A program made the position numbers and the translations under genes. This document shows positions 401 to 31,518 of a stretch of 44,350 nucleotides of DNA, one piece after another; the first letter of the stretch is position 1, and each line of letters begins with the position of its first letter. This DNA comes from a virus. The notes under the pieces were generated by a model, which was given only the letters and a program-made list of their open reading frames with translations, did no database searches and was not told the origin of the DNA. The DNA lies in the UHGV virus genome UHGV-0187309; one strand, given 5' to 3'.

Positions 401-429
401 ACTATACCACAATCTGCTGATTTTTTCAA
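401..429 (-). promoter_or_regulatory. sigma70-like promoter for the GHKL ATPase gene (TTGAAA-17-TATAGT on minus strand)
   Basis: Reverse complement of 401-429 gives TTGAAA, 17 nt spacer, TATAGT, about 55 nt upstream of the ATG at 344. Confidence 0.4.
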
Positions 430-1705: not shown

Positions 1706-1851
1706 GCGCTTTACTCCTTGTAAAATAGTACAATAATTTATTTTTTATTATAGCACAATTGCCGCCTGTTTTCAAGCCTTTAGAGAGCGTTTTCATATAA
1801 AAACTCAGGCTCTGTGAGAAGACACTATACCTCTCACAGAGCCTCTATTCA

Positions 1852-2501: not shown

Positions 2502-3059
2502 TCAGCCTTCGATCATTCTCAGCTTATAGTGTTTTCGGCAGAGTGCTGTATAACTCTCATTACCGCCGAGCTGTACCTGTTCTCCCTCTGTGACCATTTC
2601 ACCGTTCAGGAGTCTTGCATTGAAGTGCGCTCTTTTGCCGCACCAGCAGATGGTCTTGATCTGCTCAATATCGTCTGCAAGCTCCATGAGCCGCTGTGCG
2701 CCGGGAAACAGATGACTCTGGAAGTCTGTCCGCAGGCCGTAGCAGATAACTGTGATGCCATGAAAATCCACAAGATCACTGAGCTTGTCTATCATTTCAG
2801 GTGACAGGAACTGCACCTCGTCAACGATGATACAGTCATAATGCTCACCATTATAGTCAGCAAGGAAGTTTTCAGCAAACTCGCAGGGTTCTTCAAGTCC
2901 GATGCGGGATTTTAGGTTCTTCGCACCGTCCCTGTCCTCGCATCTCGGCTTCAGCAGAAGCACTTTTTTGTCTCTCTCATAGTAGTTATATCGAACCATA
3001 AGCGCATTGGCGGTCTTGGAGCTGCCCATTGCGCCGTATCTGAATATCAGTTTTGCCAT
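2502..3059 (-). CDS. tdk: Thymidine kinase
   Basis: 185 aa; P-loop YGAMGSSKT, IIVDEVQF Walker B, C-terminal Cys cluster (CWCG...C) typical of type II thymidine kinases. Confidence 0.9.
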   Translation of the reverse strand: MAKLIFRYGAMGSSKTANALMVRYNYYERDKKVLLLKPRCEDRDGAKNLKSRIGLEEPCEFAENFLADYNGEHYDCIIVDEVQFLSPEMIDKLSDLVDFHGITVICYGLRTDFQSHLFPGAQRLMELADDIEQIKTICWCGKRAHFNARLLNGEMVTEGEQVQLGGNESYTALCRKHYKLRMIEG

Positions 3060-3064
3060 CTGCC

Positions 3065-3955
3065 TTACTCCTCATCGTCCTCGTGCATGACTTCATATCG
3101 CTTGATATCTCTCTTGCTTGCAATGGAAGCGGGTTCAAGGATACCGAGAACGCGCCCGATCAGAGTGACATTGTCATATTCTGTGAATGTCATGGTATCA
3201 TACTTATCATTAAACGATACCAGACCTTCTTCCTCATATATCTTTATGTATGTACTGTTTCCAACCATGAAAGCGCCGACCTCATCGTATTGCAGCTCCG
3301 GACAGCCGGGATACTTCTCCACAAGAACAAGGTCGCCGTCATGATACTCAGGCTCCATACTGTCGCCGTTGACAGGAAACACAAGGTCTGCCTGCCGTAT
3401 TGCTGTGTTCGTATTCGGATACAGATAGATCGGTGTTCCGTTGTCCTCAAACTCCGCCCCGCCGTCAAAGCCTGCTGCAAGCCCCTTGTCGCAGAGTGTC
3501 AGTTTGATGATCTCCGGGAAGCTGCCGACAGTCTCTGCCGCTTCAAGCGAGGATAGCAGACTGTCCATTGCAAGCTGGTGCGGATACGACAGTCCACGGT
3601 ATCTCTCTACCATAGACTTTTCCTTATCAGTATAGGTATCTTGCTTGTTTTCGATGCCATATAGTTCATACAGCGTGATACCAAGTGCGTCACATAGCTT
3701 AGGAACAACGCTGAAATCCGGGCGGGTTCTTCCGTTCTCCCAGTTACTGATAGCATTTGAGGTCACGCCGATTTTTTCTGCAATCACTTTCTGATCTAAT
3801 TTTAGACGCTCCCTGTAGTATTTGATGCGACCGCCAACCGCGTGAGCGTCCTTACGGTGGGCAGGATCAGAGATGTTACTCTTAATATCCTTGCCTCCCT
3901 GTGAGACTGAGATATTCGGTTTCTTACGCTGTTTCATTACAAAGCTCTCCTTCAA
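3065..3955 (-). CDS. Phage CI/LexA-like repressor (XRE-type HTH plus S24 peptidase domain)
   Basis: 296 aa; N-terminal HTH (QKVIAEKIGVTSNAISNWENGRTRP), C-terminal S24 signature GDSMEP and a downstream Lys; divergent from the next gene with intervening promoters. Confidence 0.9.
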   Translation of the reverse strand: MKESFVMKQRKKPNISVSQGGKDIKSNISDPAHRKDAHAVGGRIKYYRERLKLDQKVIAEKIGVTSNAISNWENGRTRPDFSVVPKLCDALGITLYELYGIENKQDTYTDKEKSMVERYRGLSYPHQLAMDSLLSSLEAAETVGSFPEIIKLTLCDKGLAAGFDGGAEFEDNGTPIYLYPNTNTAIRQADLVFPVNGDSMEPEYHDGDLVLVEKYPGCPELQYDEVGAFMVGNSTYIKIYEEEGLVSFNDKYDTMTFTEYDNVTLIGRVLGILEPASIASKRDIKRYEVMHEDDEE

Positions 3956-4097
3956 GAATGTATGGGATAGTCAATCCTCAAAACGAACAAATATTCTTAT
4001 TGAAATCTGTGCAACCCTACAAAGTTTATCAAAGACTTTTCAACGCTGAAAACGTTAGAAATGCGAAATTTGGCGTAGGCATTGCATCTTTGATCAC

Positions 4098-4126
4098 ATT
4101 ATAGCACACAATCGGTGTTTTGTCAA
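4098..4126 (-). promoter_or_regulatory. Repressor promoter (TTGACA-17-TATAAT on minus strand)
   Basis: Reverse complement of 4098-4126 reads TTGACA, 17 nt, TATAAT with TGn extended -10. Confidence 0.6.
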
Positions 4127-4131
4127 TACAA

Positions 4132-4147
4132 AATTGCACTTGCAATT
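4132..4147. promoter_or_regulatory. Palindromic candidate operator AATTGCA-CT-TGCAATT overlapping the -35 of the rightward promoter
   Basis: Perfect 7 bp inverted repeat with 2 bp centre, located between the two divergent promoters. Confidence 0.5.
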
Positions 4148-4168
4148 CGTTTGACGGTGTGATATAAT
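4140..4168 (+). promoter_or_regulatory. Rightward promoter (TTGCAA-17-TATAAT) for the ImmA-like gene
   Basis: TTGCAA at 4140-4145, 17 nt spacer, TATAAT at 4163-4168; about 200 nt leader before ATG at 4370. Confidence 0.55.
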
Positions 4169-4369
4169 AGCAATGTCGGTATTCCGCCTACAGGAAAATG
4201 AGACCGAAGGCTGGTGCAGTGTGTCCGTCTTAAGGTGTGTGACAGGACAGACTGCCGGTCAGAGTACCGACAACTTCGCCATCAACCCACTTCGCCACGA
4301 TAGATATACAGAACAATAGAATGGAGCTAATGTTGGAAATACCATAAGTTGCGAAACAGGAGGGCGTAA

Positions 4370-6298
4370 ATGACTATATATCTTGATAGAGGACCGTTTC
4401 TCACCATTCCCGACAAGCTGCATTCGGGGCAGTACAGAGTGATCCGCAACCCCGACTGGCACGGAGTACTGCCGGAGATCGTGTCCTTCACCGATTTTCT
4501 CAAATGGAATTACACACTGGAGTATGGTCAGTATATCCGCAAATTGCACTACTACCACCAGCTTCCGCTGCCGTGGGTCGTTCCACAGGATGCCGAGATA
4601 GAAACTGTCATCATCGAGGAAGGCAGATATGACCGCATTGATCACAATTCCTTTGATATGTATGTGATATGCGATGTCGTGTTCGAGATGAACGGCTGCC
4701 GGCAGTGCCAGAAGTATATCGTACACGGCTTTTACTGCTCTTACGGCGGTTCAGACTTTCTGTGCGGTGCGGAGCTCTACAATGGTCAGTTTATCCGGCT
4801 GAACAATCCCTTAGATGAGTTTCTGGTTCCCATCCTTTCAAAGAAAGAATTTGCAAGCATTGCACAAGCAATCATCGACCACTACTATTCATACAAATCG
4901 AATTATCCCTGCCGCATCAATACTGCTTCAATTGCAAAGGCAATGGGTCACGATATAAAGTATGCCAGACTGTCAAAAAACGGAAATGTCAAGTCCAAGC
5001 TGATCCTGGACAAGCGGGATACGACCGTCTATGATAAGGAATACAAAGCTGTCAAAATGCGGATCGACAGTCCTACGATCCTTGTGGACGAGTCATTGGA
5101 GGAGGATGAAGCGCAGAACGCCATTATTCATGAGTGCGTTCACGCTTACCTTCACAACCTCTTCTATGAGCTGCAGAGCTACTATCGGAAAATGGTCGGC
5201 AGGAAGATGCCGGAGTTCAATGACTACTTCTATTCCAAGACGCAGCGTAGCTGCCTGAAATGGATGGAAACACAGGCAAATGCCATCCCACGCTTTATTC
5301 AGATGCCGGAGGAGCAGGCATCCGATGTCATCCTGAACTTCTTCGAGCGACTCCCCGGAGAGCCTGACTGGGACGATTACAGAGAACTGATCGACCTTGT
5401 GAAATGGAAGTTCGGAGTATCCCGCAATGCTGCGAAGAAGCGTATCATTGAGCTTGGCTGGCCGGAGGTGCGCGGTGTGTATGTCTACAACACCACAGGA
5501 TATGTTGAGGACTACGATGTAGAGCTAAGATTCCCGCAGGACTATACCTATACACTGTCATTCCGCCAAATCTCTGATGTGTTTGCATCCTGCGAGACCT
5601 TCGCAGAGCTTGTCCGTTCCAAGAAGTTCATCTATCTGGACGGTCATGTTGTGATCAACAGCGACAGGTATATCCGCAAGGAACACGGCTTAGCTATGGG
5701 CTTGACAGAGTATGCTAGACACCACATGGCAGAGTGCTGTCTGGATTTCAAGCGTATCTACGCAGAATTCGACTACAGCTATACCTATGGCGAGCTACAC
5801 AAGGATGACCTGACCGAGATCACGGCCGAAAACCGTTCGTTCAGCGATGAACAGCGAAAGAAGATCCGCATGGCAATGTATGAGATCACAGAAGAAAACT
5901 ATAAACTGACCGTTCCTTCAGATGTCAACGAATTCGGCAAGGCGGTGCGTTTCCATATGGAGAGATGCGGTCTCACCTCGGATCTGGTTGCAGACCGCAG
6001 CGGCATGGGTGTGAACACTGTCAATAAGATGCGCAGTGGCAAGAGAGTGAAGCTCGAAACAGTGCTAGCTTTTTGTGTCGCTTTGGAGCTTGAAGAGTCG
6101 TTCCGCATTGACCTTATGCAGAAAGCGAAGGTTGATTATGATATGAGCAATCCTGCCCATCGGCTCTATGTCACGATCTTTGAGCTGATGCCGAAGGCAA
6201 ATGTCTTTCAGATCAACGATCTGCTGAAGGCAGAAGGCTTTACGCCGTGGACGAGGGACTGCGAGGAAAAGAAGCGGTATGCTAAGAAAAGTATGTAA
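4370..6298 (+). CDS. Large ImmA/IrrE-like HExxH metallopeptidase-domain protein with C-terminal XRE-type HTH
   Basis: 642 aa; HExxH in IIHECVHAYLH; C-terminal HTH-like segment RSGMGVNTVNKMRSGKRVKLETVLAFCVALEL; AGGAGGG RBS. Confidence 0.8.
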   Translation: MTIYLDRGPFLTIPDKLHSGQYRVIRNPDWHGVLPEIVSFTDFLKWNYTLEYGQYIRKLHYYHQLPLPWVVPQDAEIETVIIEEGRYDRIDHNSFDMYVICDVVFEMNGCRQCQKYIVHGFYCSYGGSDFLCGAELYNGQFIRLNNPLDEFLVPILSKKEFASIAQAIIDHYYSYKSNYPCRINTASIAKAMGHDIKYARLSKNGNVKSKLILDKRDTTVYDKEYKAVKMRIDSPTILVDESLEEDEAQNAIIHECVHAYLHNLFYELQSYYRKMVGRKMPEFNDYFYSKTQRSCLKWMETQANAIPRFIQMPEEQASDVILNFFERLPGEPDWDDYRELIDLVKWKFGVSRNAAKKRIIELGWPEVRGVYVYNTTGYVEDYDVELRFPQDYTYTLSFRQISDVFASCETFAELVRSKKFIYLDGHVVINSDRYIRKEHGLAMGLTEYARHHMAECCLDFKRIYAEFDYSYTYGELHKDDLTEITAENRSFSDEQRKKIRMAMYEITEENYKLTVPSDVNEFGKAVRFHMERCGLTSDLVADRSGMGVNTVNKMRSGKRVKLETVLAFCVALELEESFRIDLMQKAKVDYDMSNPAHRLYVTIFELMPKANVFQINDLLKAEGFTPWTRDCEEKKRYAKKSM

Positions 6299-6312
6299 TA
6301 ACGGCATTTTCA

Positions 6313-6337
6313 GGAGGCTTTCGAGCCTCCTTTTTTT
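6313..6337 (+). terminator. Rho-independent terminator
   Basis: GGAGGCT-TTCG-AGCCTCC hairpin followed by TTTTTTT. Confidence 0.8.
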
Positions 6338-6946
6338 ATGCCCTGAAATATTTTCATGAAGCCCCCAGAAAAAATGGGGGCGATTTGCGTTTTTGAAATA
6401 GTTTAGAGACAGAATGTTCATAGAATATCCATTTAATTTAGATGATATGAACAAGTGAAGATGATATATCAAAGTTGAGATAAGCACAGTGCATAAAAAG
6501 CAGCCCCCATTTTTTATGTATGTAAAAGAAGATTCGGATATGTTATGATATAGACACGGTCAAGGACAGGCACCACCTTCCAAGACTGAAACACCACAAT
6601 GCCGGATGCATACGGCAGAGGATGTTCATATGATATCTGAACAGAATGCCATAGGTATACCCTGTGGTCGGAAGCCGATGTCATATGTCTACTCTGTGCT
6701 ATGCATCCGGCTATTTTTTTTGCCGCGGCATTCGGAGCATGGCAATTAGATCATTACATTTGTTAGTCAGGGCGCGCACTGGCGGACAGATGCTCATAGC
6801 GGAAATAACATCACGATTTGGAGTCTGTATAGACTGACAAGGTGTATTTCGTGTGGACATCGTCCCCTGCGTGCCTTTTTCTCTGGGACAGCAGTCGCGT
6901 TATGGGCATCTGCCGCTTGGTGTGTTCCTTGCAGAAAGGAACGATT

Positions 6947-7669
6947 ATGGAAAACGCAAATGTTCAGAATGCTGCCGCTATCACCGATAAGACCACCCTC
7001 GGCGAACTGCTTGCAATGCTTGACCTCGCTGATAAGGCAGGCAAGATGCCGACACCGAGAGAACTGTTTGAGACTGCCGGTTCGCCGATAGCCGATATGA
7101 ATGGCTGCACTCTCTTCAGCAACGGCTTCGCCATCTATCAGAATGTCACTGGGCGCACTGTTGTCTGGCTGCCGTACTGCAAGAGCTTCACCTATTACTT
7201 CGGCAAGCTCCGTGATTCCGAGAAAGACACGCTGACAGAGACCTATGAGCTGCCGGATGGATTTCTGGAAACACAGCCGTGGGTGATCGCAGTAACACTG
7301 ATCGGCGACCATCGTGTGGAGGCAAACAGCATGAACCGCACCGGCAGCCGCAAGGATACCACAGATTATGACAGCGCCGATAACGGCGATAAAGACGGTG
7401 ATGCAGAGGAGGCTTTGGCAGATCCGTATCGCAGGGCATTCAACTGGTATGACGGACGCATGGGCGAGAATCCGCAGGATGCCGTGGAGCGCAGAGAGAC
7501 ACGCGAGGAGATGCTTGCAGACATGACGGACAAGCAGCGTGAAGCCTTTATTATGTACTTCAGGGATGGTATGACGCAGGAAGAGATTGCTTCATATATA
7601 GGGGTAAGCCGTGATTCCATAAATGACAGGCTTGAAGGTGCTTTGAAAAAAGCAAAAAAATATTTTTAG
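6947..7669 (+). CDS. Sigma-70 region-4-like DNA-binding regulator
   Basis: C-terminal QREAFIMYFRDGMTQEEIASYIGVSRDSINDRLEGALKKAKK resembles sigma region 4 HTH; start at ATG 6947 (AAAGGAAC RBS) rather than the longer ORF start at 6842. Confidence 0.7.
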   Translation: MENANVQNAAAITDKTTLGELLAMLDLADKAGKMPTPRELFETAGSPIADMNGCTLFSNGFAIYQNVTGRTVVWLPYCKSFTYYFGKLRDSEKDTLTETYELPDGFLETQPWVIAVTLIGDHRVEANSMNRTGSRKDTTDYDSADNGDKDGDAEEALADPYRRAFNWYDGRMGENPQDAVERRETREEMLADMTDKQREAFIMYFRDGMTQEEIASYIGVSRDSINDRLEGALKKAKKYF

Positions 7670-31405: not shown

Positions 31406-31518
31406 AAAACAACTTCCTTTCAGATATATTATGACTTTATTTTAGACCTGTTTTGTGGTATAATGTTTGAAATGGATATAAAGTGTATCTAAAATATATC
31501 TATAAGAAGTTGTACGAT

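Follow-up and report, generated by a model that had tools for sequence, protein, structure and literature searches.

Is the perfect palindrome that lies between two back-to-back promoters in the virus genome UHGV-0187309 the operator of a genetic switch, as an earlier note on this DNA proposed, or do the sites of the repressor lie elsewhere? The question concerns positions 4098-4168 of the window, by which we mean the whole analysed stretch of 44,350 nucleotides. The best explanation of this segment is that it forms the centre of the region in which a temperate phage or prophage of rumen Ruminococcus/Oscillospiraceae controls the choice between lysis and lysogeny; gene orientations and promoter positions place a repressor gene and a lytic operon divergently, each facing away from one of two adjacent promoters. 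We assign a probability of about 0.72 to the model as a whole, namely a divergent-promoter switch in which the palindrome is fortuitous and the repressor operators lie elsewhere.

Both promoters read by the earlier note were present. The leftward promoter (PL), in front of the repressor operon, runs from 4126 to 4098 on the minus strand and matches the consensus at 12 of 12 positions (-35 TTGACA at 4126-4121, 17-nt spacer, -10 TATAAT at 4103-4098), with an extended -10 element, TGTGcTATAAT, at 4108-4098. The rightward promoter (PR), in front of the early or lytic operon, occupies 4140-4168 on the plus strand and matches at 10 of 12 positions (-35 TTGCAA at 4140-4145, 17-nt spacer, -10 TATAAT at 4163-4168), again with an extended -10 element, TGTGaTATAAT, at 4158-4168. 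Their back-to-back arrangement was as described, with the gap between the -35 hexamers measuring 13 bp (4127-4139) instead of the roughly 14 bp given before. Near-consensus hexamers, 17-nt spacers and the TG extension (TRTG in Firmicutes) identify both as promoters of the housekeeping (sigma-70/sigma-A) type, and they are the two top-scoring promoter sites in 40 kb, PL being the best. Transcripts are predicted to start near 4091 from PL and near 4175 from PR. With at most one mismatch, TGTGnTATAAT occurs 8 times in the window compared to 1.84 expected, a count reached in 0 of 100 shuffles.

The gene to the left (3065-3937, minus strand; ribosome-binding site (RBS) GAAGGAGAG) encodes a CI/LexA-like repressor of 290 amino acids with a helix-turn-helix (HTH) and a protease domain (Pfam HTH_3, 2.3e-15, residues 38-92; Peptidase_S24, 3.1e-13), which matches phrog_4, a transcriptional repressor, at 2.6e-37. 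The hallmarks of self-cleavage are readable in the protein (Ala155-Gly156, Ser193 in GDSM at 191-194, and Lys232), and self-cleavage on SOS induction is predicted. The first gene to the right (4370-6298, plus strand) encodes a protein of 642 amino acids. We gathered related switch regions via the repressor protein (483 homologues), a viral-contig scan and a metagenome-contig scan for the promoter scaffold, in which matches were kept only where a repressor homologue adjoined. The resulting footprint set comprised 26 non-redundant homologous switch regions, 18 of which form group A, with repressors 81-98% identical and a recognition-helix region, IGVTSNAISNWENGRTRPDF, identical to that of the window; all entropies below are means over group A.

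Both -10 hexamers (4098-4103 and 4163-4168) and the -35 hexamer of PL (4121-4126) had an entropy of 0 bits, the -35 hexamer of PR (4140-4145) 0.24 bits and the extended -10 elements (4104-4109 and 4157-4162) 0.05-0.19 bits, compared to 0.48 bits for the entire intergenic region (3938-4369), 0.68-1.26 bits for segments flanking the hexamers or within the spacers, and 1.18 bits for the leftmost stretch separating the two -35 hexamers (4127-4131). The two PL hexamers were thus invariant in 18 of 18 relatives (TGTCAA, the PL -35 on the other strand, was also invariant in all 15 sequences of a first alignment), while PR kept an invariant -10 and showed three -35 variants, TTGCAA, TTGCAT and TTGAAA. 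The back-to-back design recurs at 44-59% repressor identity, with near-consensus hexamers, the TG extension and -35 gaps of 12-13 or 23 bp. Because the hexamers are nearly invariant and the same design recurs at this distance, both promoters are probably functional, and the comparative support for this is strong. The switch layout that had been proposed is thereby borne out by the identity of the repressor gene, by hexamer conservation and by the retention of the layout in distant relatives.

A recurring trait of these distant switches is that one promoter mirrors the other, and in some of them the mirroring extends into the spacers. Near-perfect mirror copies with spacers included were observed at three loci (L007, L023 and L030), and in L007 CACGAAAATGTCAA...TTGACATTTTCGTG forms a 14-bp perfect inverted repeat. 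This mirroring points either to lineage-specific sites within the two spacers or to an inverted duplication as its origin.

The palindrome at 4132-4147

At 4132-4147 the palindrome AATTGCA-CT-TGCAATT is indeed perfect, is the only copy in the intergenic region and does overlap PR, its right arm consisting of the -35 hexamer plus 2 nt and its left arm lying in the variable 13-bp gap. It is not beyond chance statistically: the window holds 5 perfect inverted repeats of the 7-N2-7 form, where about 2.6 are expected; with spacers of 0-6 the number is 35. We therefore assessed it by conservation, on the logic that a true operator keeps both half-sites among phages with the same recognition helix. 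This logic is backed by the TP901-1 and phi13 switches, in which operators are preserved where the CI N-terminal domain is shared (PMC7250872, PMC8516035).

We found that the left arm (4132-4138) had a mean entropy of 0.75 bits, with 11 variants among the 18 sequences, and that its central TGCA (4135-4138) reached 1.11 bits, more than twice the intergenic mean, despite the identical recognition helix. Variants of the arm centre (TTATA, TTGTG, TTGTA, TTACA, TCACA, TTCCA, ATACA, ACACA and others) differed mostly by transitions, as drift would give. The perfect dyad was kept in only 3 of the 26 regions (the window, L064 and L140). Left-arm variation was accompanied by no co-variation in the HTH of the repressor or in that of the 642-aa protein, both of which are identical across group A; two loci that share both HTH regions, L078 and L140, carry the arms AATTATA and AATTGCA. 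The conserved right arm is inseparable from the -35 hexamer, and TTGCAA is its own reverse complement. When dyads within 3938-4200 were ranked by conservation, the palindrome came third, after those at 4021-4039 and 4038-4051.

No lineage-specific central dyad was found between the -35 hexamers of distant switches with the same architecture. ACA...TGT dyads that appear in those switches were rejected as by-products of the TGTG and TTGACA promoter elements.

Since the left arm is not conserved at a fixed recognition helix, does not co-vary with it and faces a right arm that is the -35 hexamer itself, the palindrome is most likely fortuitous, a self-complementary TTGCAA next to a drifting A/T-rich upstream stretch. 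The operator proposed in the earlier note accordingly found no support in the relatives, and an eye-catching perfect palindrome over a -35 hexamer need not be an operator.

The strongest alternative is that the palindrome is a genuine operator, on which a repressor dimer would cover the PR -35 between the promoters, with the degenerate arms of the relatives being tolerated weaker or pseudo-symmetric sites. An exact 7-N2-7 dyad over the -35 hexamer is what this would predict, and a CI operator between divergent promoters has precedent, as OR in switches of the TP901-1 type (PMC7250872). Across the 26 regions a mean of about 4.6 of 7 pairs is kept about the same axis, compared to 1.75 expected at random, mainly at the outer AAT/ATT positions. 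TTGCA/TGCAA half-sites, a search for which had been suggested as a check, were indeed enriched (5 in 432 bp compared to 1.2 expected), but only those at 4010 and at 4140, the latter being the -35 hexamer, were conserved. Together with the variable arm centre, the lack of co-variation, the frequency of perfect palindromes of this size in the window and the missing central dyad in distant relatives, this makes a genuine operator at 4132-4147 unlikely.

Candidate repressor sites outside the palindrome

If the palindrome is fortuitous, the repressor probably binds elsewhere. Promoter spacer sequence is normally free to vary. Inside the PR spacer, the block TTCGTTTGA (4146-4154, plus strand) is nearly invariant, at 0.03 bits with 2 variants among 18 relatives, while positions 4155-4156 and 4169-4173 around it vary at 0.94-1.26 bits. 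This block is the best positional candidate for a site from which the repressor would occlude PR. It contains GTTTGAC (4148-4154), a one-mismatch copy of the heptamer CTTTGWW.

Exact copies of this heptamer (CTTTGWW/WWCAAAG) lie within conserved blocks in the leader of the repressor transcript (3938-4094, about 155 nt), at 3938-3944, 4018-4024 and 4028-4034 on the minus strand and at 4088-4094 on the plus strand, the last lying over the predicted PL start; four copies in 157 bp compare to about 0.11 expected from the window-wide rate. The copy at 3938-3944 abuts the repressor start codon. The same leader holds the dyad at 4021-4039, the best conserved of the region, and the block CGAACAAATATTCT discussed below, and its RNA folding was not significant (z = -0.51). 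The heptamers are possibly real operator half-sites or sites acting at the RNA level; as operators over the PL start and within the leader behind it, they would give the repressor control over its own synthesis.

More promoters of the TGTGnTATAAT type lie at 1747-1775 (minus strand), 31454-31464 (plus strand) and 401-429 (minus strand). The first of them (1775-1747, TTGAAA-17-TATAAT, 11 of 12) lies 3' of a strong terminator (1844-1807) and precedes a 365-aa gene (608-1705) without a family match. No operator common to the phage's four TGTGnTATAAT promoters was found.

Several points weigh against a fortuitous palindrome with operators elsewhere. A4132, A4133 and A4138-C4139 are conserved, a pattern that we read as a shared A/T-rich element 5' of the PR -35 that may be UP-like. 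The commonest left-arm variant is AATTGCAC, found in 7 of 26 regions and across lineages, such that it is possibly the ancestral state. Natural operators can be pseudo-symmetric, with one half degenerate, and this phage's repressor possibly binds the palindrome weakly, the right arm being indistinguishable from the -35 hexamer. The candidates TTCGTTTGA and CTTTGWW emerged post hoc, and neither a clear repeated dyad nor a homologous operator set was identified in the switch region. Promoter starts and repressor binding are, moreover, sequence predictions here.

The block CGAACAAATATTCT (3984-3997) is conserved at 0.07 bits and resembles a LexA box. The consensus of the Firmicutes LexA (Cheo) box is CGAAC-N4-GTTCG. 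Host LexA could thus act in the switch, with CGAACAAATATTCT as an SOS box controlling a weak proximal promoter of the operon of repressor, thymidine kinase and SOS response associated peptidase (SRAP) genes. Consistent with this, the halves of the block behave in a complementary manner among lineages, which differ in the half that is perfect (GAAC...ATTC in group A and in relatives at 63-69%, GCAC...GTTC in the 73% group), and the operon includes the SRAP gene. The block nevertheless has two mismatches to the 14-mer, and such matches number 18 in the window compared to 20 expected, for a Firmicutes consensus that may not be that of the host. No promoter matching at 9 of 12 positions or better was found near it, and it could equally be a site of the phage repressor, so that we consider a role of host LexA improbable.

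Weakest of all is a looped switch in which palindrome cores at 4133, 4859 and 4931 form an OR/OL/OD-like set bridged by an oligomeric repressor: ATTGC-N4-GCAAT does occur in three exact copies within 812 bp and nowhere else in 44 kb (0.07-0.10 expected per window), and TP901-1 and phi13 each rely on three operators, of which one is distal (PMC8516035, PMC7250872), but the copies at 4859-4872 and 4931-4944 (plus strand), 72 bp apart inside the 642-aa gene, were rejected as distal operators because they are in-frame, same-phase coding by-products (IAQAI and IAKAM, or I-A-x-A-[I/M], for which both DNA matches have a chance of about 0.01 given the peptides and phage codon usage, for a motif defined post hoc) that are not conserved at the DNA level, the 4859 site being unique to the window (IAQ[D/E/G/K]I in relatives), the 4931 site being broken in close relatives by synonymous GCA-to-GCT changes, and the promoter-proximal copy at 4133 itself not being conserved, which leaves this arrangement highly improbable.

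The rightward leader RNA and the surrounding genes

The more unusual element of the region, and one that could matter more than the promoters or the palindrome, is a structured leader RNA of about 100 nt (4172-4274, plus strand) that begins at the 5' end of the PR transcript. In the minimum free energy fold, a closing stem pairs 4174-4184 with 4262-4272 and encloses an outer helix (4216-4220 with 4251-4255) and a hairpin (4222-4229 with 4241-4249), whose loop GGUGUG (4234-4239) was invariant in 23 of 23 aligned leaders. The RNA also includes the A-rich single strand GAAAAUGAGAC.

Indels shift the stems out of register in a plain MAFFT alignment, and three approaches were used to assess the structure: folding of individual leaders, a control with swapped stems, and a covariance model. 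Relatives folded independently into the same architecture with differing stem sequences (GUCCGUC/GACAGGAC, CUGCC/GGCAG, CAGCC/GGCUC, CCUAC/GUGGG, CUGCUG/CAGCAG and AGACCA/UGGUCU). Cognate stems were more stable than stems swapped between lineages, both for the hairpin (-9.3 vs. -5.0 kcal/mol) and for the closing stem (-11.5 vs. -7.2 kcal/mol). When a structure was defined by hand on the group A alignment, 93% of its cells were paired, and sliding the partners lowered this to 25-50%.

A covariance model built from group A only found the leader at the equivalent position of loci with 47-59% repressor identity (L022, 6e-9; L007, 1.5e-6; L021, 1.6e-4), while about 1.1 Mb of fetched, mostly unrelated sequence gave just two hits, both marginal: L045, an unrelated locus (E = 0.43), and the strand opposite a true hit (E = 0.26). 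The 73% group was not detected by the model at E ≤ 1, though independent folds give the same architecture there. In the model-derived alignment, which is fitted to the model and hence leans towards structure, 12 of 22 pairs showed double compensatory changes and 91% of cells were paired; 0 of 500 shuffles reached any of the measures, and slid controls gave at most 6 double-change pairs. G-U pairs favour the plus strand. Indels among relatives are not multiples of three, which indicates that the leader region is non-coding, and the RNA travels with the promoter, as two loci (L013 and L106) retain it despite a different downstream gene. Rfam returned no match at E ≤ 1 in 3800-4500 or in four divergent loci, and none at the gathering score across the window.

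Sequence 3' of the RNA was also assessed. No plus-strand terminator-like site was found in 4170-4370, nor a U-tract after the closing stem, as a riboswitch or attenuator platform would have; a helix sequestering the RBS would be the other form of such a platform, and the RBS lies about 85 nt 3' of the structured domain, in a weakly folded region. Directly after the structured leader, an exact 9-mer is directly repeated in conserved columns (ACTTCGCCA-N7-ACTTCGCCA, 4273-4297, plus strand). The ACTTCGCCA repeat occurs in most relatives, is reduced to a single copy (CCTTCGCC) in the 73% group and is absent from L013 and L106, where the downstream gene differs; a protein might bind it, as DNA or as RNA. 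In four lineages at 63-73% (L005, L164, L154 and L071), rightward leaders carry CAATTGCAATGTCGG or CATTGCAATAG about 110 nt 3' of PR. Both resemble AGCAATGTCGG, which directly follows the PR -10 in the window, such that part of the promoter-proximal sequence may have been duplicated in these leaders.

Transcription from PR would extend through the structured leader and the 642-aa gene and end at strong tandem intrinsic terminators, which a terminator scan placed directly 3' of that gene (6312-6331 and 6361-6381, plus strand) and which are kept in relatives, including ones at 58-61% identity. They are followed by an AT-rich gap of about 550 bp and then by the gene of a sigma-like protein (6842-7669). 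No plus-strand promoter matching at 9 of 12 positions or better was found between 6300 and 6842. The tandem terminators and the lack of a consensus promoter downstream raise the question of how transcription of the early genes beyond them is achieved.

The leader may represent a previously undescribed class of phage cis-regulatory RNA on an early lytic promoter. A put-like role, in which the RNA would modify the transcribing RNA polymerase and allow read-through of the terminators at 6312-6381 into replication and late genes, is suggested by its position and is doubtful. It is also possible that the leader is a 5' stabiliser, or that it gates lytic development by binding a protein or a ligand. 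If it is put-like or sensing, the switch would be decided in part by RNA and not at an operator. Should it govern read-through or lytic transcript stability, prophage induction in gut and rumen Firmicutes would have a new RNA element. A literature search on put-like leaders returned nothing specific.

The 642-aa protein has a weak match to Peptidase_M78 (ImmA/IrrE-like; 22.1 bits at a cut-off of 22) and a C-terminal HTH, and belongs to phrog_4031, a PHROG without assigned function. Its gene adjoins the switch in most relatives, and its domains suggest that it may be a protease or an antirepressor acting on XRE-type repressors. The first gene behind PR is thus not a small Cro-like gene. On the other side, PL would drive the putatively self-cleaving repressor and then the thymidine kinase and SRAP genes, which lie 3' of the repressor gene on the same strand. 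Farther to the right are genes for the sigma-like protein, an exonuclease, a single-strand annealing protein and a DNA polymerase; together with the repressor they mark this locus as the part of a temperate phage that holds its immunity and early genes. Related loci were found in Ruminococcus flavefaciens, other Ruminococcus and Oscillospiraceae genomes, mostly from rumen or gut, and in IMG/VR prophages; a contig of R. flavefaciens 007c, for instance, carries a relative at 90% (L016). Blastn of 3000-6400 detected no DNA similarity to deposited phages, and a literature search on switches of rumen Ruminococcus prophages yielded nothing specific.

Comparison with known switches

The switch itself is an ordinary temperate-phage control region, with a CI/LexA-type repressor and divergent promoters, in an under-studied host group. 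It offers well-footprinted, strong and compact divergent promoters for anaerobes that are hard to manipulate.

We compared it with several known systems. As with PRM and PR of lambda, divergent promoters lie between the repressor gene and the lytic operon, and the lambda repressor has a LexA-like self-cleaving C-terminal domain, an architecture shared with the window repressor. In lambda, however, three related 17-bp operators (OR1-OR3) bridge the promoters, whereas no such repeat set was seen in the window; PRM is weak and activator-dependent, whereas PL is a perfect consensus promoter; and the window switch has no Cro homologue.

The pairing of an XRE-family repressor with a neighbouring protein that matches Peptidase_M78 resembles ImmR/ImmA of ICEBs1 and DdrO/IrrE, in which the protease cleaves the repressor. 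Unlike in those pairs, the gene with the M78 match is not co-transcribed with the repressor gene but diverges from it on the lytic promoter, the repressor has an S24 domain of its own, and the M78-matching protein is much larger (642 aa), with a marginal match.

The put RNAs of the lambdoid coliphage HK022 are cis-acting RNAs of processive antitermination. The rightward leader resembles them in position alone, being a structured RNA directly 3' of an early phage promoter with terminators farther along the operon; unlike put, it is a single closed domain of about 100 nt with an invariant GGUGUG loop.

In TP901-1 and phi13, a CI operator lies between divergent PR and PL promoters and is joined by further operators, including a distal one (PMC7250872, PMC8516035). 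Their layout differs from that of the window, which has no small MOR-like gene (the first PR gene encoding 642 aa) and whose central operator candidate is not conserved. The TP901-1 half-site AGTTCAYR (PMC8516035) has no copy in 3938-4369 and 8 copies in the window compared to 5.2 expected, a frequency consistent with chance, the nearest lying at 3663, inside the repressor gene. TP901-1 CI ends in multimerisation domains and not in an S24 protease domain (PMC4941734, PMC7250872), unlike the window repressor, which carries S24.

Further likenesses are with CI/Cro-type switches of Firmicutes temperate phages whose repressor joins an HTH to a LexA-like S24 domain, as in the Staphylococcus phi11/80alpha class and the CI-like repressors of Streptococcus prophages. 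The nearest deposited phage repressors come from Streptococcus, Staphylococcus and Clostridium phages and are annotated as CI-like or transcriptional repressors, and the nearest deposited phage hits of the phi11/Streptococcus CI class comprise 127 Staphylococcus and 166 Streptococcus records. Between its divergent repressor genes, phi11 carries a set of three homologous operators (PMC3991615), whereas a homologous repeated operator set was not identified in the window switch. The window also differs from these switches in its repressor, which is less than 35% identical to any deposited phage repressor, in having no small Cro-like gene, and in its unusually long conserved leaders, which measure about 155 nt on the left and about 195 nt on the right, where the covarying structured RNA lies. 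What the window shares with these switches is the combination of HTH_3 and Peptidase_S24 with the Ala-Gly, Ser and Lys of self-cleavage, and a short intergenic region from which the repressor gene and the early lytic operon are read in opposite directions by two promoters that face away from each other.

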